Shown here: piece after piece, positions 428 through 33,398 of the stretch
Position numbering within the stretch: the stretch's first letter is position 1
Layout: every line of letters starts with the position of its first letter
Source of the DNA: Nostoc sp. ChiSLP01
Lineage (GTDB): Bacteria > Cyanobacteriota > Cyanobacteriia > Cyanobacteriales > Nostocaceae
DNA length: 64,000 nt
Reading direction: 5' to 3'
NCBI GenBank assembly: GCA_034531195.2
Contig: JAVRBO020000103.1
Span: forward strand, 16,744-80,743
Program-made: the position numbers and the translations under genes
Notes under the pieces: model-generated
Seen by the model: only the letters and a program-made list of their open reading frames with translations
Database searches by the model: none
Told to the model about the DNA's origin: nothing

Positions 428-958
428 ATGAATACAAGTTACGATAAAAATATTTCTCAAGCCCGAAGCAATGAAAGTCAAAAAGTGGTAGATGCGTTTA
501 ACGCCTTAGATACCGATGCAAAATTAGCTTGGTTCTATTTTGTTTATAAAAAAATGGGCGATTCCATTACCCCAGCGGCTCCTGCTGCTACCGATCCGGA
601 ATTAGCACCAAAGTTGCTAGGAGATTATTTTGAGTTATCAGATGACGAGCAATTAAACATTATGCGGGATATTGTTAACCGCAAAGACACAGAATATTCC
701 CGCGCTTATGGGGCGATTAAAGAAAACAATCAGTTGTTAGTTTGGTATGCTTGGGCAGTAGCTATGGGAGATAAAGTAGTTGGGTTACCAGCTAGCTACC
801 AGCCAAGCCAGGCCATTAATGATTTGCTTTCCCAAATAGAAGAGCTAGATTTTGACGAGCAAATTTCGGTGTTCCGGACAATAGCTGGTGAATTGGGTTA
901 CACCGATGTTAAGCCAGTTGAGACACAGGCACAAACTGGTAAAACGTCAAGTCTGTAA
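428..958 (+). CDS. helical carotenoid protein (stand-alone homologue of the orange carotenoid protein N-terminal domain)
   Basis: The 176-aa ORF has GGAG about 10 nt upstream. It is collinear by eye with the OCP N-terminal all-helical domain (LDTDAKLAWFYFVYKKMG..ITPAAPAA..NNQLLVWYAWAVAMG..LPASYQPS..ISVFRTIAGELGY). No NTF2-like C-terminal domain is present. Confidence 0.85.
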   Translation: MNTSYDKNISQARSNESQKVVDAFNALDTDAKLAWFYFVYKKMGDSITPAAPAATDPELAPKLLGDYFELSDDEQLNIMRDIVNRKDTEYSRAYGAIKENNQLLVWYAWAVAMGDKVVGLPASYQPSQAINDLLSQIEELDFDEQISVFRTIAGELGYTDVKPVETQAQTGKTSSL

Positions 959-992
959 TTATGCCAATTTTCGTCGAATAGAGAACATATAC

Positions 993-1020
993 GTAGGGGC
1001 ACAATATATTGTGCCCCTAC
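993..1020. repeat. 28-nt perfect palindrome GTAGGGGCACAATATATTGTGCCCCTAC (dispersed hairpin; likely bidirectional terminator)
   Basis: It lies between the convergent HCP and ABC-ATPase genes. Related copies are at 8697-8724 and 26931-26952. Confidence 0.85.
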
Positions 1021-1055
1021 AATGGCGTGTTTGATTCAAAATTTGGAATTGATAA

Positions 1056-1841
1056 TTAAGAGACAGCAAGTTGATTCAAGTCAGACGGAGTTAGGTTAGA
1101 GTGTACCACCTCACCATCGCGGAACCAAACGATGCGTTGGGTTTGACGTGCTACTTCTGGTTCGTGGGTTACCATAACAACGGTGATTCCGCTAGCATTG
1201 AGTTCGCTAAAGATGTCTAAGACTTCTTGGGTTGTGCGCGAATCAAGTGCGCCGGTGGGTTCATCGGCTAGGAGTACTACGGGACGGTTGACAATGGCAC
1301 GAGCGATCGCTACTCTTTGTTGTTGTCCCCCTGATAGTTGAGTTGGTTTGTTATTGAGGCGTTTTGCTAAGCCGACTCGTGTCAGTGCTTCGATGGCGCG
1401 ATCGCTTCTTTCTTTTGGATTCACGTTAGCATATACCATTGGCAGCATCACATTTTCTAATGCTGTGAGTTGAGGTAATAAGTGGAATTGTTGGAACACA
1501 AACCCCAGCTTTTTGTTACGGATGTGTGCCAATGATTTATCCTCCATTTGCGCCACATCTATATTATCTAAGTAATAATGTCCGTCTGTGGGTCGGTCTA
1601 GACAGCCGATAATATTCATGGCTGTAGATTTACCGGAACCAGAAGGCCCCATAATTGAACAATATTCGCCTTCGTGGATAATCAAATTCACATCGTTGAG
1701 TGCTTTGACTTCGGTTTCGCCACTGCCGTAGACTTTATATATATTTTCTAAACGAATAATAGTTGATTTCGGTACAGGATTAGGAACTAGAGAATCCGTA
1801 ATTGAAATAGTCTTTGCCATAAGGATTTGGTTATTAGCCAA
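1056..1841 (-). CDS. ABC transporter ATP-binding protein (MacB/LolD/DevA type)
   Basis: It has Walker A GPSGSGKST, the signature LSGGQQQRVAIARA, Walker B VVLLADEPTGALD and the H-loop VTHE. No permease or adaptor gene is adjacent; the upstream side holds a MITE-like repeat instead. Confidence 0.9.
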   Translation of the reverse strand: MANNQILMAKTISITDSLVPNPVPKSTIIRLENIYKVYGSGETEVKALNDVNLIIHEGEYCSIMGPSGSGKSTAMNIIGCLDRPTDGHYYLDNIDVAQMEDKSLAHIRNKKLGFVFQQFHLLPQLTALENVMLPMVYANVNPKERSDRAIEALTRVGLAKRLNNKPTQLSGGQQQRVAIARAIVNRPVVLLADEPTGALDSRTTQEVLDIFSELNASGITVVMVTHEPEVARQTQRIVWFRDGEVVHSNLTPSDLNQLAVS

Positions 1842-2003
1842 TGTTGAATATTAATTAATTTTATCTTGCGTATCTCTTTTCTTCTTTTCCCTCTAGCAAG
1901 AACTCCCTCTGCCTCTTGCACCAGTTACTCTGTACGTCATGCAAATGAAAACTGCTATCAGAGGATGTTTGAAAAGTCATGATTGATGTATCAAATATTT
2001 TTT

Positions 2004-2260
2004 ACCCCACCCTAACCCTCCCCTTGCTAAGCAGGGCTGTTTCATTCGATCTCTTGGGTATTTTGTCAAGAGTATGAGTCAGAAATTTGCTTGATTGGGG
2101 AAAAGAAAAGCTACCACCTCAACGAGTAAATTTAAGTGCGATCGCGATTTTATTGCCCAATCAGATTTTTTAGTCACCTGACTTTTTTGCTTGAAACGCT
2201 TGTAAATCAGCGCTTTTTCGGGAACGAAACAGCCCTGCCTTGCTAAGGGGCGGGTGGGGT
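2004..2260. mobile_element. MITE-like element with ~35-bp terminal inverted repeats
   Basis: The left arm at 2004-2043 is ACCCCACCCTAACCCTCCCCTTGCTAAGCAGGGCTGTTTC. The right arm at 2226-2260 is GAAACAGCCCTGCCTTGCTAAGGGGCGGGTGGGGT. No ORF lies inside. The right flank GGCGGGTGGGGTGTTTGAGGATTTGTAAGTAATTAA recurs inverted at 10049-10083. Confidence 0.7.
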
Positions 2261-2611
2261 GTTTGAGGATTTGTAAGTAATTAAGGGAACTTGATATAAA
2301 ACCTTAAGCAAACATTAAGCATATCTACTTATATGTCTTAAGAAAGTAGTTGAGAAATTAGGAAAGCTATATTGTATAGATATAATAAATTATTTTGACA
2401 AATAGAACAAATTATGAATCAAAAGCAAAAAATATCCAACAAAGCTTATATCTGGGTGAATATTGATTTTGATAAGGTTAAAGACAGAATAAATGTGGTG
2501 ACTTCCAAAATTGAGCAGGTTATCCAAAAGTACCAATTTTCAAGAGCTAATGACTCAGGCAAAAGGAACAATTAGGTTGTTACCAAAGCGATTGCAGTTG
2601 GTATTTTTGGC

Positions 2612-3532
2612 TTAAGAACGTCTTACATTCAAACAACACCATTCTTTGCGTTTCCACAGAGTAGCAACCACCCAGCCATGTTTTTCTAAGGCGTCAGCGA
2701 CAGCTTTAGATTGTTCGAGTAAAATACCGCTGAAGATAGCCCAAGTGTTAGGCTTGGCGATCGCACTCATTTCTGGAACCAACTCAATAATTACATTAGC
2801 CAAGATATTGCAAACAATACCGTCCACTGGCTTTTCTAGCAGTTTTGTCAAAGCCTCTACACTTCCCTGTGCAGGTATTAAACGTTCTGCGCTAATCTCA
2901 TTCAAGGTACGATTGCTAATAGTTGATTGCACCGCCAATGGGTCAGTATCCACTGCATAGACTTTCTCTGCTCCCAGTAGCAACGCCCCGATGGAAAGGA
3001 TACCAGAACCACAACCTATGTCAGCAATTACCGTATGCTCTTGTTTACCAGCAGTACCCACAAAGGATTGCGGTACTTCACTTAGACGCATTTCCAAAGA
3101 TTCTAAACATAGCTGAGTTGTAGCATGATTTCCTGTACCAAATGCTACACCTGGATCGAGAAGAATTACTAACCGTTGGTTTGTTTCAGGTAATGGTAGC
3201 CATGCGGGGTTAATCAAAAAGCGATCGCCAATTTCTTGGGGTTGCCAATATTGTTTCCAGCTAGTGGCCCAATCTTCTTCATCAATCAATTCCCAACGCA
3301 AGGTGGGAGATGAAAGCCCTACACAGAGGGCATCTTGACGCAACCGCAGCGATAGTGCTGCCAAATCTAGTAATTGTGTTTGAATTGTCGGCAAGTAACC
3401 CCTGATTAAAGAGGAATTTCCTTTGCTTTCACTAGCTGTGCCACGACAGCCAAAATCTTCCAGCCGCCAAAAGATAGAATCTTCTAGATCCGGATCGCAT
3501 AAAATTTGTAGTTCCCACCAGGTGTTTGCCAT
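2612..3532 (-). CDS. prmA: ribosomal protein L11 methyltransferase
   Basis: The 306-aa ORF has the PrmA N-terminal pattern ([20 protein letters not shown]) and SAM motif [12 protein letters not shown]. Confidence 0.85.
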
Positions 3533-26953: not shown

Positions 26954-28840
26954 TTATATTTCTCTTAAAAAACTTGCATAATTCGCCCGAACTGTCATAG
27001 TAGTAGGATGACTGACACCTAAAGTCCGTTCGCAAATTTTCAAAGCTTGCTCAAACAGTGGTTTGGCTTTCCTGTAGCGTCTTGTATGGCGGTAGAGTGC
27101 TGCTAAATTATTCAGACTAATGGCGACATCGGGATGGTTTTCTCCCAAAAGACGTTTAGTCAGTTCCAAAGCTTGCTTATAGAAGGGTTCGGCTTCGCTG
27201 TAGCGTCCTGTAGATTCGTAAAGTTGTCCTAAATTGTTCAAGCTAGTAGCAACATCGGCGTGTTCTTCTCCCAGTAGCCGTTTTCTCAGCTTTAAAGCTT
27301 GCTTGAGCAAGGGTTCGGCTTCGCTGTAGCGTCCTGTAAAACAGTACAATGCTCCTAAATTGTTCAGGCTAGTAGCCACATGGGGATGTTCTTCTCCCAC
27401 TAAGCGTTTCCAGAGTTCTAAAGCTTGCTGATACAAAGATTCGGCTTTACCATAGCGTCCTGTAGATTCGTAGACTACTGCTAAATAGCTCAAATTAGTA
27501 GCGACATCAGGATGTTCTTCTCCTAGCAGGCGTTTTCTCAGTTTTAAAGCTTGCTCAAACAAAGGTCTGGCTTCGGTATAGTGTCCTGTAGATTCGTAGA
27601 GTAATGCTAAATTGTTGAGGCTAGTGGCGACATCAAGATGGTTGTCTCCCAACAGACGTTTTGTCAGTTCTAAAGCTTGCCGATACAAGGGTTCGGCTTC
27701 ACTGTAGCGTCCTGTAGATTCATAAAGTCCTGCTAAATTGTTGAGGCTAGCAGCGATATAAGAATGTTCTAAACCAAGATGATTTTGAGTTAGTTTTACA
27801 CACCGTTGCAACCAAGATTCTGCTTGCTGATAAAGTCCTTGTCCTTGATAAAACCAAGCTAATTTAGTAAACACAGCGATGAGGTTTTCATCGCTGAGAT
27901 ACTGGGATAGGTGGGTTGCAACTTCTGTAATGTGCGGGATATGTGGAGTGAAATTGACAATATCTTCAGGATTAGGCTGTTGCGGAATTAGATTTGCTAC
28001 CTCTAACATCATTGCTGCAAATTTAGTTTTTGCTTCATCCGCTTCATTTGAATTATCTAACTTTATTCGGAGAAGTTGCCGAATTAAGGGATTTAAAAGA
28101 TAAATTACTTTACTTTTCTGTTGTAGCAAATGCAATTCTAGTAAATCGGCGATCGCTTTTTCATCGAGCTGTTGTTTTTTCTCGTCTTCTATCGTCTCCA
28201 CAGATAAAGGAATGTCAGCTAAAGCACACAAACTCAGCAAACAGCCAAAGCTTTGTGCATTCTTATCTAGTTGTTCCCAACTCAATTCAAAAGCTTCAGC
28301 TACACCGTATTCGTAATGCATCAACGAGTTAGCATTGGCTACGGGTTCATGTTCTTCTCGCTTTTTCTCTAGCCGCTTTAGCAGTATTTCTAAAGACAAA
28401 TCCGGTATTTTATTGAGATATCGCCCCACTAACTCTAAGGCTAAAGGTGAATATCCCAAAAATTTACAAATTCTTTTGGCGACCCAGGGTTCTTGTTGCA
28501 GCCTTTCTCGAACCACTAGCGATTTTAATAGTTTTATCGCCGCTAATGGTTTGAGGACATCTAATTCGCTATTATATTTTGCCCTCAGGTAAGCTTGTAA
28601 CTTTTCTAGTTTGCCCTGACTTTTGGAAATAGCTAATTCAGGATAATTCTGGGCAAATTTGTCATATAGCTCGCCCATCCACTTTCTAAAAGTAGGGATA
28701 TCAACGTTTAATTCGCTGGCAAGTTGAGCTTCAGTTTTACCTAAATTTTCAGTCTTAAAATAGTTTACAAAAGCTACAGTCTGTTCAAGGGATAAGCCAG
28801 TAGTAGCAGCTTCTTTGGCTAGAAAATTAGCCCATTGCAT
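26954..28840 (-). CDS. HTH / ARC-remnant / TPR protein: paralogue of 30211..32601 lacking the P-loop NTPase core
   Basis: The N-terminal 90 aa are homologous to the neighbour (MQWANFLAKEAA..LSLEQTVAFVNYFKTENLGKTEAQLASELNVDIPTFRKWM). The sequence then jumps directly to LKPLAAIKLLKSLV..GYSPLALELVGRYL and 42-aa TPRs. No Walker A, Walker B or TTR motif is present. Confidence 0.85.
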   Translation of the reverse strand: MQWANFLAKEAATTGLSLEQTVAFVNYFKTENLGKTEAQLASELNVDIPTFRKWMGELYDKFAQNYPELAISKSQGKLEKLQAYLRAKYNSELDVLKPLAAIKLLKSLVVRERLQQEPWVAKRICKFLGYSPLALELVGRYLNKIPDLSLEILLKRLEKKREEHEPVANANSLMHYEYGVAEAFELSWEQLDKNAQSFGCLLSLCALADIPLSVETIEDEKKQQLDEKAIADLLELHLLQQKSKVIYLLNPLIRQLLRIKLDNSNEADEAKTKFAAMMLEVANLIPQQPNPEDIVNFTPHIPHITEVATHLSQYLSDENLIAVFTKLAWFYQGQGLYQQAESWLQRCVKLTQNHLGLEHSYIAASLNNLAGLYESTGRYSEAEPLYRQALELTKRLLGDNHLDVATSLNNLALLYESTGHYTEARPLFEQALKLRKRLLGEEHPDVATNLSYLAVVYESTGRYGKAESLYQQALELWKRLVGEEHPHVATSLNNLGALYCFTGRYSEAEPLLKQALKLRKRLLGEEHADVATSLNNLGQLYESTGRYSEAEPFYKQALELTKRLLGENHPDVAISLNNLAALYRHTRRYRKAKPLFEQALKICERTLGVSHPTTMTVRANYASFLREI

Positions 28841-28966
28841 AATAGTTTATTAACTTTATTTTTGATTCTACTTTGTCTCGATTTGCAAACCTCCTCTCTT
28901 TGAGGGAAATATACATTTATATAAAAAGATTTAAAAGCAGTTGCCACCTTTAGCCAATTGTCAGTT

Positions 28967-29239
28967 GAGCCTCAGAAGGTCAACGTCGAGCCTCAGAAGG
29001 TCAAAGTTGAGCCTCAGAAGGTCAACGTCGAGCCTCGGAAGGTCAACTTCGAGCCTCAGAAGGTCAACTTCGAGCCTCAGAAGGTCAACGTTGAGCCTCG
29101 GAAGGTCAAAGTTGAGCCTCAGAAGGTCAACTTCGAGCCTCAGAAGGTCAACGTCGAGCCTCGGAAGGTCAAAGTTGAGCCTCGGAAGGTCAAAGTTGAG
29201 CCTCAGAAGGTCAAAGTTGAGCCTCGGAAGGTCAAAGTT
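28967..29239. repeat. 21-bp tandem array B (13 units, GAGCCTC[A/G]GAAGGTCAA[C/A][G/T]T[C/T])
   Basis: I counted 13 contiguous units from 28967 to 29239. Variation is confined to 4 positions. The array begins 127 bp upstream of the start of the 26954..28840 gene. Confidence 0.95.
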
Positions 29240-29267
29240 GGCATTTAGAACTTAAAATGCTCGAGCT

Positions 29268-29291
29268 GTCTACGACGGGCTACGCCTACGC
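29268..29291 (+). repeat. 24-nt dispersed motif, copy 2
   Basis: The sequence GTCTACGACGGGCTACGCCTACGC begins 28 nt after array B. Confidence 0.85.
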
Positions 29292-29659
29292 GCTTCGATC
29301 GCTTACTATGAGAATCGAACCGCAAAGGAAGAGAGAAGAAGGAGCGATCGCTCTTTGAAGGTAGAATTGAAGGGCGATCGCTTTTAAGCTTTAAACTACA
29401 ACTATTGTGTAGCATCAATTTGGTGTGGTTTTGGGATAAAGGGGGCGATCGCTATTCTCGTGCTTGTTGTTTGAGCAAATTCACCAAAGTATCCGACAAC
29501 CACAAACCAGTGTCATGCATTAGAGTTCTTTTTTATTAATCTTTTTCGCACTCATTCGAGTGCAAATAAAAGTTCTGTTAAAGATTGACTCTCGATTTTT
29601 AAGAAGCGGTTTAACCGCAAAACGCAGCGGCGGCTTTCGTCTGTCCGCTGCCGTGAAGT

Positions 29660-30199
29660 TTAGCCTGCCCGCCGCAGGTTCTTGCTAACCCATTCCCTCG
29701 CTGCTGTCGGTGCTAATCGCTGCAACTCGGCGCAAAATCGTTTGTAGAAGGCTTCGTATTCACTGATAAACTCCCGATAGCTAAACCTTACTTTCTGCCA
29801 TTCGTCATTCCCTTCGCCATCCGATATCGCGGAATCTATGATGGATAAATACATCGTCTCGCCCTCTCGCTCAAAGAGAAATGCCGGCTGCCCTTGCTCC
29901 CCTTCGTCAAAACAGTAGCGGGCTTGAGCGCTACCTTTGAACTCGTGGCGGATTCTTTCGAGTTCCTCAATCCACTGAGAGAAGCACACGTCATTCGCTC
30001 CCCAATAACCCATATATGGGACGAAACGATTACCAATATTAATCAATAAAGCGCCATGAATGTGGCTGGAGGCATCTAATTCCGTCAACGGCAAGCGGGT
30101 ATTATTACCAACTTTGATGACAGCCAGATCCTCGAAAGTAATTTTGATAATGGAATTTTGTTGCATAAGCTTCAGATCGTGGTGTGATTTTGGGAGCAA
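29660..30199 (-). CDS. hypothetical protein, co-oriented immediately downstream of the NB-ARC/TPR gene
   Basis: It is 179 aa from TTG 30199 or 168 aa from ATG 30166, lying 12 or 44 nt after the upstream stop. I recognise no family (..FVPYMGYWGANDVCFSQWIEELERI..). It appears soluble, with no TM helix or signal peptide. Confidence 0.6.
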   Translation of the reverse strand: MLPKSHHDLKLMQQNSIIKITFEDLAVIKVGNNTRLPLTELDASSHIHGALLINIGNRFVPYMGYWGANDVCFSQWIEELERIRHEFKGSAQARYCFDEGEQGQPAFLFEREGETMYLSIIDSAISDGEGNDEWQKVRFSYREFISEYEAFYKRFCAELQRLAPTAAREWVSKNLRRAG

Positions 30200-30210
30200 G
30201 GGGGCGATCG

Positions 30211-32601
30211 CTAGCGATATGCTTCTCTTAAAAACCTGGCATGATTTCCCCGAACCGTGATTGTATCAGGATGACCTACACCTAAAACACGCTCATAAAT
30301 AGCCAAAGCTTGCTGATATAGAGGTTCAGCTTCGCTGTAGCGTCCTGTAGAACGGTAGAGTTCTGCCAGATTGTTCAAGGTAGTGGCGACATCGGGATGG
30401 TTTTCTCCCAGTAAGCGTTTTCTCAGTTCTAAAGCTTGCTGATACAGAGGTTCAGCTTCGCTATAGTGTTCTGTAGAACGGTAGACTGTTGCGAGATTGT
30501 TCAAGGTAGTGGCGACATCGGGATGGTTTTCTCCCTGTAGGCCTTTTCTCAATGTCAAAGCTTGTAGATGCAAAGCTTCAGCTTCGCTGTAGCGTCCTGT
30601 AGAACAGTAGAGTACTGCCAGATTGTTCAGGCTAGAGGCGACATGGGGATGGTTGTCTTTGAATAAGCGTTTTGTCAGTTCTAAAGTTTGCTGCAAGAGA
30701 GGTTCAGCCTCGCTGTAACGTCCTCTAAAACGGTAGAATAATCCCAGATTGTTCATGCTAGTGGCGACATCGGGATCGTTGTCTCCCAGTAACCGTTTTC
30801 TCAGTTCTAAAGCTTCCTTATAAAGCTGTTCAGCTTCTTTGTAGCGTCCTCTATAATCGTAGACTAATGCCAAATTGTTCAGGCTATTGGCGACATAAGA
30901 ATGGTTGTCTCCCAGTAAGCGTTTTGTCAGTTCTAAATTTTGCTGCAAGATAGGTTCAGCTTCGCTGTAGCGTGCTGTAGAAAGATAGAGTATTCCTAGA
31001 TTGTGGAGGCTAGCAGCAACATGGAGGTGTTCTAAACCAAAACGATTTTTAGTCACTTCTACACACTGCTGCAACCAAGGTTGTGCTTGCTCGTATAAGC
31101 CTTGTCCTGTATAAAACCAGCCTAAACCCCTGAATATGTAAATTAAATCTTCATCGTTGACGTAGCTAATCATATAATTAGCTACTTCTACCAAATGAGG
31201 GATAAAAGGGGTGAGTTGTTGAATCAAATCACGGTTAGGGAATTGCGAAATTTGCTTTGCTTTCTCTATCATGTGAACGGTAAAAGCAGTTTTCACTTCA
31301 TCAGCCTCGCTAGACTTATTTAGCTTCATTTGAAAAAATTGCCGAATCAGTGGATGTAGTCGATATATTCCTTTACCCCGACGTTGTAGCAAATGCAGTT
31401 TTAGCAACTCAGCTATAGCTTTTTCCTTGAGTTCTTGTTCTTCGTCATTTTCTACCGCCTCAACAGAAAAAGGAATGTCAGCCAAAGCATACAGACTCAG
31501 CCTACAGCCTAATCTTTGTGCATTTTCATCCAACTGTTCCCAACTCAATGCAAAAGCTTCAGCCACACCATATTCATAACGCATCAATGGGTTAGCCTTG
31601 GCTATTGCTTCATGTTCCAGTCGCTTTTTCTCTAGCCGCTTCAGCAGTTTTTCTAGAGACAAATCTGGCATTGTATCCAGATATCGCCCCACTAACTCTA
31701 ACGCCAAAGGTAAATATCCCAAGTCTCTACAAATTTTTCTCGCAACCCAAGGTTCGCTTTTCAACCGTTCTCTGTCAACCAGCGATTTTAATAATTTCAT
31801 CGCCGCCAATGGTTTGAGAACACCCAAAGGTAATTGTGGCAAAGTTCTATCAAACCCCAAGCGCGTTGTCAGCAATACTTTAAACCGAAGTGATTCTGGC
31901 GGTAGATAAGACTGAACCTGTTTTTTGTAGTCGGTGACATCATCAAACACCAGCAGCACTTCACCTTGTTGCCAATTCTGCCAGCAGTATCTCAGCCTAT
32001 CTGCTAATTCCCAATCATCCGGTGCAATGAGTTTAAATTTTAATTGAGCAAATCTGAGAATTTGAATTCCGACATCTATTCCCTGTACAGATAACCAGCA
32101 AACCCCACCTTCATAATTCTGCAAATACTGTTTGGCGTATTGGGTAGCAAGTTCAGTTTTCCCGACTCCACCCATACCCGCCACAGCTACAATTGCAACT
32201 TGCCGAGATGTTTGTAATTTCTGGTGCAGTTCTTCTAGTTTTGTCTCACGCCCCACAAATTTTTCAAATGGAACAGCAGGCGGAATATTTTCATAAATCT
32301 GCTTAACTGTGGGGTGGGCATCTTGCCCGCCATTATATTTCTTTATCAGGCAAGCCCGTAACTTTTCTAGCTTACCGCGACTGTTAGAAGTGGCTAATTC
32401 AGGATAACTCTTGGCAAACTTGTCATACACCTCAGCCATCCGCTTTTTGAAAGCAGCCGCACCAATGTTTAATTTGCTGGCTAGTTTCGCTTCACTCTTT
32501 CCTGAGTTTTCAGTCTTCAACCGCTCTACAAAAGCTGCCGTTTGCTCTGGGGATAAGCTATTAATAGCAGCTTCTTTGGCTAAAAAATCAGCCCATTCCA
32601 T
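30211..32601 (-). CDS. STAND NTPase: LuxR/sigma-r4-like HTH + NB-ARC + kinesin-light-chain-type TPR array
   Basis: The HTH-like pattern is LSPEQTAAFVERLKTENSGKSEAKLASKLNIGAAAFKKRMAEVYDKF. NB-ARC motifs are present: Walker A AGMGGVGKTELA, Walker B VLLVFDDV, LLTTR, GYLPLALELVG. About nine 42-aa TPRs follow (LNNLAxLYxxxGRYSEAEPL). Confidence 0.9.
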   Translation of the reverse strand: MEWADFLAKEAAINSLSPEQTAAFVERLKTENSGKSEAKLASKLNIGAAAFKKRMAEVYDKFAKSYPELATSNSRGKLEKLRACLIKKYNGGQDAHPTVKQIYENIPPAVPFEKFVGRETKLEELHQKLQTSRQVAIVAVAGMGGVGKTELATQYAKQYLQNYEGGVCWLSVQGIDVGIQILRFAQLKFKLIAPDDWELADRLRYCWQNWQQGEVLLVFDDVTDYKKQVQSYLPPESLRFKVLLTTRLGFDRTLPQLPLGVLKPLAAMKLLKSLVDRERLKSEPWVARKICRDLGYLPLALELVGRYLDTMPDLSLEKLLKRLEKKRLEHEAIAKANPLMRYEYGVAEAFALSWEQLDENAQRLGCRLSLYALADIPFSVEAVENDEEQELKEKAIAELLKLHLLQRRGKGIYRLHPLIRQFFQMKLNKSSEADEVKTAFTVHMIEKAKQISQFPNRDLIQQLTPFIPHLVEVANYMISYVNDEDLIYIFRGLGWFYTGQGLYEQAQPWLQQCVEVTKNRFGLEHLHVAASLHNLGILYLSTARYSEAEPILQQNLELTKRLLGDNHSYVANSLNNLALVYDYRGRYKEAEQLYKEALELRKRLLGDNDPDVATSMNNLGLFYRFRGRYSEAEPLLQQTLELTKRLFKDNHPHVASSLNNLAVLYCSTGRYSEAEALHLQALTLRKGLQGENHPDVATTLNNLATVYRSTEHYSEAEPLYQQALELRKRLLGENHPDVATTLNNLAELYRSTGRYSEAEPLYQQALAIYERVLGVGHPDTITVRGNHARFLREAYR

Positions 32602-32735
32602 AGACAGCTTGTGAGATTTCTTCTCGATTCTACTTAATTTCTACTTTTTTTCTACTTTGTCTCTATTTCTAGGGAATTTCCTCTTCTTTGGGCAGAAATA
32701 CGATTTGCATAGAAACATTTAGAAGAGGTTTAGCC

Positions 32736-32984
32736 ATGAAAACTGCTTTAACAAATCCAGTCAACGCTAATCAAACCACCCAAACTTCGCAATTAATCCC
32801 CGCCTCGCCAACATTAGTAGAAAATCCATCTACTTGGATGCGAAACGGAGACAGTCCAGGCGAAATTATCCTTGCAGTGGCAATTTTGACTTCAGTGTCC
32901 ATTGCTGGAATTGCCTCTGTGATTGTCGCAATTACAGGTTTAGTTAAAGTTTTAGTACACCCGACAAGCGAAAAAACTAAATAG
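32736..32984 (+). CDS. small hypothetical membrane protein, divergent from the STAND gene
   Basis: An ATG with GAGG 9 nt upstream opens an 82-aa ORF. The N-terminal half is polar. A single C-terminal TM helix is present (IILAVAILTSVSIAGIASVIVAITGLV). Confidence 0.45.
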   Translation: MKTALTNPVNANQTTQTSQLIPASPTLVENPSTWMRNGDSPGEIILAVAILTSVSIAGIASVIVAITGLVKVLVHPTSEKTK

Positions 32985-33103
32985 AAGCACTTCTAAAGGC
33001 AAATTCTTTGCTTTGTTGCTATCCCGCCTTGGAATCAATTCCAAGGCTAGTAGCCTAAGTCCGTTCAAACGGACTAAATTTTAGTTAATTTTAGCCTCTG
33101 AAC

Positions 33104-33334
33104 CTCAACGTTGAGCCTTTTATCTTCAACGTTGCATCTTTTATCTTCAACGTTGCACCTTTAATCCTCGAAGTTGCGTCTTTTATCCTCAACGTTGCAC
33201 CTTTAATCCTCGAAGTTGCGTCTTTTATCTTCAACGTTGCACCTTTGATCCTCGAAGTTGCGCCTTTTATCTTCAACGTTGCACCTTCGATCCTCGAGGT
33301 TGCGTCTTTTATCCTCGAAGTTGCACCTTTTATC
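33104..33334. repeat. 21-bp tandem array C (11 units, alternating [C/T]TCAACGTTGCACCTTT[A/G]ATC and CTCGAAGTTGCGTCTTTTATC)
   Basis: I counted 11 units from 33104 to 33334 plus a degenerate 12th. The first unit and its left flank (AGCCTCTGAACCTCAACGTTGAGCC) resemble array B units. Confidence 0.95.
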
Positions 33335-33373
33335 TTTAAGTTTGGTGTTGGAAACTCGAAACGACTAAGCTAT

Positions 33374-33398
33374 CTCTACGACGGACTACGCCTAAGCT
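33374..33398 (+). repeat. 24-nt dispersed motif, copy 3 (2 mismatches)
   Basis: The sequence TCTCTACGACGGACTACGCCTAAGC begins 39 nt after array C. Confidence 0.8.

Follow-up and report, generated by a model that had tools for sequence, protein, structure and literature searches.

AfsR, the large Streptomyces antibiotic regulatory protein (SARP) of Streptomyces coelicolor, combines an N-terminal DNA-binding domain with a nucleotide-binding oligomerization domain (NOD) of the NB-ARC type and a following series of tetratricopeptide repeats (TPRs). Its target is a pair of 11-bp direct repeats, whose sequence overlaps the -35 element, and activation is held back by the NOD and TPR parts until ATP binding lifts the block (PMC10936776). 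MalT/LAL proteins and GutR are likewise cited as non-immune regulators among the signal transduction ATPases that have numerous domains (STAND) (PMC13581612), and a study of bNACHT proteins places DNA-binding domains among the 'adaptor' heads. For cyanobacteria, Kaur et al. 2021 list a helix-turn-helix (HTH) domain like that of extracytoplasmic function (ECF) sigma factors among the N-terminal modules of TRADD-N/STAND conflict proteins, with a transcriptional response as the inferred output (PMC8195603), and for cyanobacterial sigma-70 homologues a 2024 BMC Genomics survey gives the accessory domains NB-ARC, TPR_MalT, WD40 and AAA_35 (PMC11119718). We analysed a 64,000-nucleotide stretch of Nostoc sp. 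ChiSLP01 (GenBank assembly GCA_034531195.2, contig JAVRBO020000103.1, positions 16,744 to 80,743 of the forward strand; hereafter the window), which carries a gene for a 796-amino-acid (aa) STAND protein with the AfsR order of domains. An initial annotation, made from the sequence alone, had proposed a two-gene sensing module consisting of this gene and a small gene just downstream. To judge from the loci compared here, the conserved unit in Nostocaceae is a different one, namely the STAND gene, a divergently oriented gene for a small membrane protein and the control region between the two, with or without a tandem paralogue. The following features of the window carry the argument.

30211..32601, minus strand: the STAND gene, 796 aa, with HTH, NB-ARC and TPR parts (open reading frame with Pfam NB-ARC and TPR matches)
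32326..32601, minus strand: predicted HTH of the sigma-70 region 4/LuxR type, aa 1-92 (AlphaFold2 fold and profile matches of relatives)
31615..32250, minus strand: NB-ARC NTPase module, aa 118-329 (Pfam NB-ARC, E 6e-20)
32155-32178, minus strand: P-loop GMGGVGKT, aa 142-149 (motif inspection)
31936-31956, minus strand: Walker B motif LLVFDDV, aa 216-222 (motif inspection)
31699-31719, minus strand: GYLPLAL, a GxP/GLPLAL-type motif, aa 295-301 (motif inspection)
30232..31146, minus strand: about seven 42-aa TPR units of the kinesin-light-chain type (TPR_10 in seven stretches; 126-nt periodicity of the DNA)
32602..32735, no strand: 134-nt divergent control region (conservation; AGTAGA repeats)
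32736..32984, plus strand: divergent gene for an 82-aa protein (conserved neighbour in orthologous loci)

The 796-aa protein is identical to MFN6564920.1 of Nostoc sp. ChiSLP01, and the annotations of the exact proteins in ChiSLP01 and CmiSLP01 call it a 'tetratricopeptide repeat protein' and the 168-aa product of the downstream gene a 'hypothetical protein'. Pfam NB-ARC was matched over aa 118-329 with 71.9 bits against a cut-off of 23.5, and the four NTPase motifs that had been read from the sequence (P-loop, Walker B, the sensor or TTR motif LLTTR at aa 243-247, and GYLPLAL) are all present and intact, so that by threshold and motifs the protein classifies with the STAND NB-ARC (AP-ATPase) clade. 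By sequence, the nearest solved structure to the NTPase was that of AfsR (8k60/8jke; E 3e-17). The C-terminus matched TPR_12 and TPR_10 at E 1e-115 and 1e-94, respectively, the top PDB sequence match of the TPR part was kinesin light chain, and the repeats comprise six canonical 42-aa units (cores at aa 529, 571, 613, 655, 697 and 739), one degenerate unit and a cap. The initial annotation was right about the type of the repeats and too high in their number, which it gave as nine; the order of HTH, NB-ARC and TPR that it described was borne out by Pfam, the motifs, the AlphaFold2 model and the profiles of relatives. Orthologues were sampled as 75 loci of the gene at 62-90% identity, with one genome per species. 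Across loci L010-L084 the shortest orthologue had 741 aa and the longest 1174 aa, with increments of about 42 aa that imply the gain and loss of single TPR units. Several copies were frameshifted or truncated, among them those in L047 (121 aa + 597 aa), L025, L048 and L069; HTH-only fragments of 74-160 aa appear in many databases.

The N-terminal ~92 aa can be assigned, on the evidence of fold ranking and transitive homology, to the sigma-70 region 4/LuxR-GerE HTH superfamily. The AlphaFold2 model of this domain, built with 16 homologues in the alignment, contained five helices at a predicted local distance difference test (pLDDT) value of 84, and the top 50 PDB entries returned for it by Foldseek were mostly sigma region 4 structures (SigL, SigC, SigD, SigE) and DNA-binding domains of NarL/FixJ/LuxR proteins, none of them at a significant E-value. 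A search with the 94-aa N-terminus alone gave only short proteins; an exhaustive HMMER search of representative sequences with the HTH profile, which brought out the domain architectures, yielded 207 representative clusters (E ≤ 1e-3), and in nearly all of them the domain occupied residues 1-95. When 48 diverse family members were tested, 19 matched Sigma70_r4_2 (best E 3.3e-8), 13 matched GerE (1.1e-5) and 11 matched Sigma70_r4 (2.7e-6); the relative P0136 also carries a precomputed Sigma70_r4_2 match. In ChrA, a regulator of the LuxR type, the family profile aligned with the recognition-helix region (E 4e-4). A match of the profile to staphylococcal protein A was rejected as chance, being the sum of weak repeats with E ≥ 13 each. 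The HTH that had been recognised from the raw sequence was therefore correctly read, given the fold ranking, the HMMER family and the transitive profile matches, and it does occupy the N-terminal slot that in such proteins usually holds an effector. Neither Sigma70_r2 nor Sigma70_ECF was matched in the 796-aa protein, which, having a region-4-like domain only, is not a sigma factor.

The HTH is not confined to proteins of the NB-ARC clade. Among 71 long family members, the regions behind the HTH matched NACHT (31), NB-ARC (25), nSTAND5 (20) and nSTAND3 (18), with further Pfam matches to nSTAND1, AAA_35, NACHT C-terminal domains, HEAT and TPR. With NACHT, NB-ARC and nSTAND domains behind it, the HTH is thus a mobile module that heads proteins from many STAND clades. 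Across the whole window it is carried by the 796-aa gene and a 628-aa paralogue, and by no other gene. Since its relatives match Sigma70_r4_2, it is probably the same domain family as that described in PMC8195603 and PMC11119718.

The conserved neighbour of the STAND gene lies upstream of it, 134 nt away and in the opposite direction. Of 61 orthologous loci, 56 had an intact copy, and in 35 of those 56 the distance between the two genes was exactly 134 nt. The 82-aa product has a polar N-terminus rich in Q, T and P, an NPSTW motif, a single helix that is strongly hydrophobic (Kyte-Doolittle about 2.2 across 18 residues) and a tail of basic character; the Nostocaceae versions are 82-86 aa long, are predicted to be single-pass membrane proteins, and are annotated as 'hypothetical protein' in many Nostoc genomes. 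The 134-nt intergenic region showed a mean pairwise identity of 92.5%, compared with 80% at the third codon positions of the flanking genes. The region is thus more conserved than synonymous sites and, like the 82-aa gene, is under strong constraint. On its minus strand it contains three AGTAGA direct repeats (32651-32656, 32640-32645 and 32629-32634) spaced at exactly 11 nt, or one turn of the helix, the last of which ends 28 nt before the STAND start codon. Four of the 14 copies of the octamer AAGTAGAA in the window fall in the promoters of the two STAND-type genes (the 796-aa gene and the paralogue). None of the ten other AAGTAGAA sites in the window suggests a further target promoter and hence a wider regulon, since each falls within a coding region, shortly behind one or in a stretch that carries no annotation.

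Comparable arrangements were found in distant loci that share the HTH. In 7 of 10 distant HTH-STAND loci, the 80 nt before the start codon contained RGTA[GT]A repeats phased at 11 or 23 nt. Since the repeats persist in loci whose HTH has an identity of only ~40% and whose NTPase is of a different clade, they are most simply explained as a putative operator of this HTH. A divergent small open reading frame (ORF) comparable to the 82-aa gene was present in four of the six distant representatives looked up: an 87-aa ORF 124 nt upstream in L085 (NB-ARC/TPR), an 83-aa ORF in L087 (nSTAND5/TPR), a clear orthologue of the 82-aa gene in L088 (NB-ARC with a non-TPR C-terminal domain) and a 71-aa ORF 135 nt upstream in L091 (NACHT/HEAT). 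The four products share one design, running from a Q/T/P-rich start through an NP(x)xW motif, which in L085 reads NLPDW, and a hydrophobic helix to a basic tail. An ORF of this design also accompanied the STAND gene in all nine metagenome loci, which were found with a narrower HTH alignment (the copy in L093 is frameshifted). In this small survey of distant members, the divergent adjacency of the small ORF appears to hold across STAND clades that carry the HTH. The L088 protein (477-3089; P0042, 870 aa) was noted separately because it retains the same HTH, NB-ARC and divergent 82-aa-type gene with a C-terminal domain that is unrelated to the TPRs and has no Pfam match; in effect, the sensor has been exchanged while regulator and partner stay the same.

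About half of the genomes contain, in addition, a tandem paralogue that has no nucleotide-binding domain (NBD).

26954..28840, minus strand: tandem paralogue, 628 aa, with the HTH joined directly to the equivalent of STAND aa 259-796 (BLASTP)

In BLASTP comparison with the STAND protein, the paralogue was 63% identical over aa 1-94 and 66% identical over aa 259-793, with nothing corresponding to aa 95-258. The missing residues comprise the linker, P-loop, Walker B and sensor, and the HTH, helical, winged-helix and TPR parts are kept. The deletion junction was identical in 36 other loci, and of 34 complete copies, 33 had an open reading frame (588-633 aa). Such constancy of junction and frame indicates that the paralogue is being maintained and is no mere debris; it may act, independently of nucleotide, as a partner or antagonist of the STAND protein. 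One AAGTAGAA copy lies 26-33 nt before its ATG, a position equivalent to that in the STAND promoter. In one Nostoc locus (L051, 6001-12909), two full units of 82-aa gene and STAND gene stand in tandem, followed by the NBD-less paralogue.

Taken together, these observations favour, with a probability that we put at roughly 60%, the interpretation that the 796-aa protein is an AfsR-like, ATP-switched transcription factor that acts on the phased repeats and the divergent gene. By analogy with AfsR, the NOD and TPR parts would keep the DNA-binding head inactive until a ligand of the TPRs, together with ATP, changed the conformation or oligomeric state of the protein and so released or aligned the sigma-4-type heads. 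Copies of the HTH would then occupy the phased repeats, and their occupancy would control both the STAND gene's own promoter and the divergent membrane-protein gene, the likely output of the system. The NBD-less paralogue could modulate this response by competing for the operator or by entering mixed oligomers.

Several results weigh against this interpretation. For residues 1-115 of the window protein, zero Pfam HTH models were matched even at E ≤ 10, and the Foldseek matches of the HTH model, with probabilities of up to 0.96 and target-normalised template modelling (TM) scores of 0.57-0.72, had a best E of 0.26, which is not significant, so the assignment of the window's own domain rests on fold ranking and transitive homology. 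The octamer AAGTAGAA is over-represented in the window generally (14 observed versus 3.1 expected). The RGTA[GT]A count in the distant loci, 17 versus 0.31 expected from the rest of those loci, is an inflated measure of enrichment because the motif was defined post hoc, after the sequences had been viewed, and three of the ten distant loci (L086, L087 and L089) have no repeats near the start codon. In L086 and L089, which form a divergent 'MLPREFL' subclass, the upstream ORFs are of another kind, and among the small membrane proteins of the different clades one W and one L alone are invariant, so that their homology is weak. A secondary, strain-specific interaction between the STAND protein and the 168-aa product of the downstream gene may also occur, given the likely co-transcription of the two genes in this strain (see below).

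The usual partner of an ECF sigma factor is an anti-sigma factor that spans the membrane once, and this pairing lends some weight to an alternative that we nevertheless regard as unlikely, in which the sigma-4-like head is a protein-interaction module that does not bind DNA. The divergently encoded membrane protein would then serve as an anti-sigma-like tether, keeping the STAND protein at the membrane until released by a signal, or the head would dock on RNA polymerase as sigma region 4 does. The best Foldseek match of the HTH model was in fact region 4 of SigL complexed with the membrane anti-sigma factor RslA (3hug), the conserved partner is itself a predicted single-pass membrane protein, and adaptor domains are, according to PMC8195603, frequent occupants of STAND N-terminal slots. 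However, anti-sigma genes are normally co-transcribed with the sigma gene, whereas the 82-aa gene is divergent, and its product contains no recognisable anti-sigma domain. Moreover, phased repeats that are non-coding and yet kept across clades are more simply taken as an operator, and the putative recognition helix retains the basic K/R residues that LuxR-type regulators have.

A second alternative, which we consider very unlikely, is that the locus is a decaying or rapidly diversifying cluster of repeat genes without coherent function, the paralogue and the many short HTH-only proteins being pseudogenes left by recombination between repeats. Consistent with decay are the many truncated relatives (such as HTH-only ORFs of 121 aa, a fusion of an HTH with the last TPR and the L047 frameshift), the variable TPR copy number (741-1174 aa) and the repetitive DNA beside the genes, which consists of 21-nt tandem arrays and highly iterated palindrome (HIP1) sites. 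The two arrays are as follows.

28921..29303, no strand: 21-nt tandem repeat array before the paralogue (repeat families D4/D5)
33066-33376, no strand: twin 21-nt repeat array beyond the 82-aa gene (repeat families D4/D5)

They comprise 13 and 10 in-register copies, at 21-nt spacing, of reference stretches of 131 nt and 122 nt, respectively; both carry a conserved 23-nt flank (D12; TCTACGACGG.CTACGCCTA.GC), and like arrays occupy the equivalent place in many related loci. Decay is, however, difficult to reconcile with a full-length gene that is intact in most species, with a paralogue whose junction is identical throughout and whose frame is open in all but one of 34 copies, or with the strong constraint on the 82-aa gene and the intergenic region.

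The gene downstream of the STAND gene, which the initial annotation had taken for the second member of the module and for the only candidate partner, belongs to an insertion.

29660..30166, minus strand: 168-aa passenger gene; its family has no name and carries a DEGEQGQPAF motif (homologues; AlphaFold2)
29421..30213, minus strand: 759-nt insertion with 34-nt flanking direct repeats (repeat pair; empty sites elsewhere)

The longest frame (29660..30199, minus strand) encodes 179 aa, and from the ATG at 30166 the product is 168 aa, with a gap of 44 nt to the STAND gene. This ATG was accepted as the start because homology to L007 begins ~6 nt before it and NCBI annotates 168 aa; the proposed ranges of 168-179 aa for its length and 12-44 nt for the gap settle at 168 aa and 44 nt. 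A single-sequence search with the protein gave 15 homologues that were 38-100% identical, and a profile search enlarged the family to at least 528 members across phyla, all stand-alone, all ~165 aa long and none with a Pfam domain. The DEGEQGQPAF core is invariant in the family alignment and the AlphaFold2 model had a pLDDT of 90.6, which together indicate a real, conserved and well-folded gene product. As had been suggested at the outset, no recognised family accommodates it: Pfam (to E ≤ 10), NCBIfam and PADLOC matched nothing, Foldseek of the model against PDB and BFVD gave no meaningful match (TM ≤ 0.43), and a PDB sequence search returned chance matches only. The family thus appears to be an undescribed domain family. 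An identity as SMI1/KNR4 (SUKH), the name given in one UniRef orthologue entry, was rejected, as Pfam was blank at E ≤ 10 and the best PDB Foldseek TM was 0.32 with no SUKH entry. A SUKH immunity-protein reading based on that name and on a small-gene array in L004 could not be substantiated either. In L004 (2827-8307, a metagenome-assembled genome), the 168-aa homologue lies within a co-oriented run of small unannotated ORFs, near transposase/integrase fragments and a PemK toxin gene, in a setting that resembles an accessory or immunity-gene island.

Synteny did not connect this gene with the STAND gene. In the species-level sample, the 168-aa gene adjoined the STAND gene in one of 75 orthologous loci (L011, Nostoc sp. 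DedQUE12a), and the pair also occurs in the close strains N. linckia NIES-25 and N. paludosum FACHB-159, as judged by accession order. In six other genomic contexts of 168-aa homologues a STAND gene was present in none; the neighbours there were mutL, hisS, a pyridine-nucleotide oxidoreductase, UDG/DUF4291, an AraC regulator and the small-ORF array. The inserted segment is bounded by a 34-nt direct repeat, TAGCGATCGCCCCCTT..TCCCAAAA.CACACCA (repeat family D11), with copies at 30180-30213 and 29421-29454, 759 nt apart (two occurrences versus 0 expected by chance), and its G+C content is 0.485 compared with ~0.42 nearby. At least 25 orthologous loci have the empty site, in which one 34-nt copy follows the stop codon and is succeeded by the sequence found here beyond the second copy. 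Recombination may take place in the 34-nt sequence at the stop codon, which contains a HIP1 site. Strains differ in the spacer behind the STAND gene, which extends for 332 nt to 4.5 kb before the next gene begins and holds other cargo, including a UPF0175/DUF3368 pair in eight loci, which we read as toxin-antitoxin, a 176-aa ORF with an N-terminus that by inspection resembles a signal peptide in five loci, an S-adenosylmethionine (SAM) methyltransferase in two loci, and TPR fragments. The spacer between the STAND gene and the paralogue thus behaves as a landing pad. Loci with such cargo were L012, L013, L016, L020-L022, L027, L029, L041, L047, L054 and L073.

Given the synteny counts (1/75 loci and 0/6 contexts), the 34-nt duplication, the empty sites and the other cargo in the spacer, the 168-aa gene is a passenger on a recent insertion and is unrelated to the STAND gene. 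It is probably co-transcribed with the STAND gene in this strain, as no terminator-like site was found between the two genes and a hairpin with a T-run (-20.3 kcal/mol, about 29618-29651) follows the 168-aa gene within the insertion; because this would result from where the insertion landed, we did not count it in support of a module. The passenger status of this closely linked gene shows how little tight spacing in one genome says about a functional module. Accordingly, a dedicated sensing or conflict module of STAND and 168-aa proteins, with the small protein as effector or cofactor, is barely credible despite the shared strand and 44-nt gap, the pair kept in NIES-25, FACHB-159 and DedQUE12a, and a conserved, well-folded product, since the gene is missing from 74 of the 75 loci, its homologues elsewhere are never beside a STAND gene, the family extends across phyla, and the segment bears the marks of an insertion. 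The two-gene proposal therefore failed the synteny test set for it in advance, and the candidates that it overlooked were the divergent 82-aa gene and the tandem paralogue. The comparison of loci suggests that the 82-aa gene, and not the 168-aa gene, is the conserved partner of the STAND gene.

It is possible, although on balance we doubt it, that the HTH-STAND and small membrane-protein genes constitute a widespread system with transcriptional output in multicellular cyanobacteria that resembles the nucleotide-binding leucine-rich repeat (NLR) proteins. In such a system the C-terminal repeats (TPR, HEAT or other) would sense an invader or danger signal, ATP-dependent assembly would align the heads on the phased RGTAGA repeats and so turn on a small membrane-active protein, this protein would arrest or kill the cell, and the paralogue would act as decoy or brake, loosely like plant NLR sensor/helper pairs. 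The domains to which the HTH is fused, the varying number of TPRs and the frequency of truncated copies argue for a role in conflict; wide conservation at high identity in Nostocaceae and the lack of matches to defence models argue for a regulatory one. PADLOC matched no Avs/NLR model and returned a generic TPR model (PDLC01169) and sub-threshold PDC matches at E ≥ 4e-4. Should the transcriptional reading be correct, the locus would offer a concrete promoter-and-target pair for studying NLR-like outputs in multicellular cyanobacteria.

Compared with AfsR, the ChiSLP01 locus is similar in the order of its DNA-binding, NB-ARC-type and TPR parts and in its direct repeats, three in number at 11-nt phasing just upstream of the STAND gene. 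It differs in the head, which in AfsR is an OmpR-type winged helix with BTAD and here is a predicted sigma-4/LuxR-type tetrahelical HTH, in the partner gene (afsS for AfsR, a small membrane-protein gene here) and in the host, an actinomycete in one case and a cyanobacterium in the other. The 796-aa protein had no Pfam match to Trans_reg_C or BTAD, and its NCBIfam AfsR score was 124.9 against a cut-off of 1430, with the match covering the NOD only; on these profiles it is not a member of the SARP/AfsR family. MalT/LAL proteins and GutR are similar in being STAND transcription activators switched by ligand and ATP, with helical-repeat sensors. The LuxR HTH of MalT/LAL proteins is, however, C-terminal and their NTPase is of the MalT clade, whereas the HTH here is N-terminal; with an NCBIfam MalT score of 17.6 against a cut-off of 537, the protein does not classify as a MalT/LAL member. 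GutR has the N-terminal HTH order seen here.

The cyanobacterial proteins of PMC8195603 and PMC11119718 are STAND-type proteins of multicellular cyanobacteria that likewise have a sigma region 4-like N-terminal HTH and a predicted transcriptional output. The initial annotation went too far in suggesting that such a composition was not known: ECF-like HTH heads on STAND and TRADD-N conflict proteins are described in PMC8195603. Those two reports are catalogues of domain architectures. A literature search found no experimental characterisation of HTH-STAND fusions, and a search of the text by keyword turned up neither the divergent gene for a membrane protein nor phased repeats nor an NBD-less paralogue. 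HTH-STAND fusions are already catalogued, and on that keyword search the conserved partner gene, the phased repeats and the paralogue appear to be new.

The Avs and bNACHT antiviral proteins share with the 796-aa protein an N-terminal output domain, a STAND NTPase and C-terminal ligand-sensing repeats, and the HTH family itself also occurs on NACHT and nSTAND proteins. They differ in carrying an enzymatic effector head, in whose place the HTH stands here, and in their patchy distribution, whereas the gene described here is widely conserved within one cyanobacterial family. STAND proteins with DNA-binding heads (AfsR, MalT and GutR) are metabolic regulators, and those with enzymatic heads are antiviral sensors; a sigma-4-type head that is common to NB-ARC, NACHT and nSTAND proteins sits between the two.

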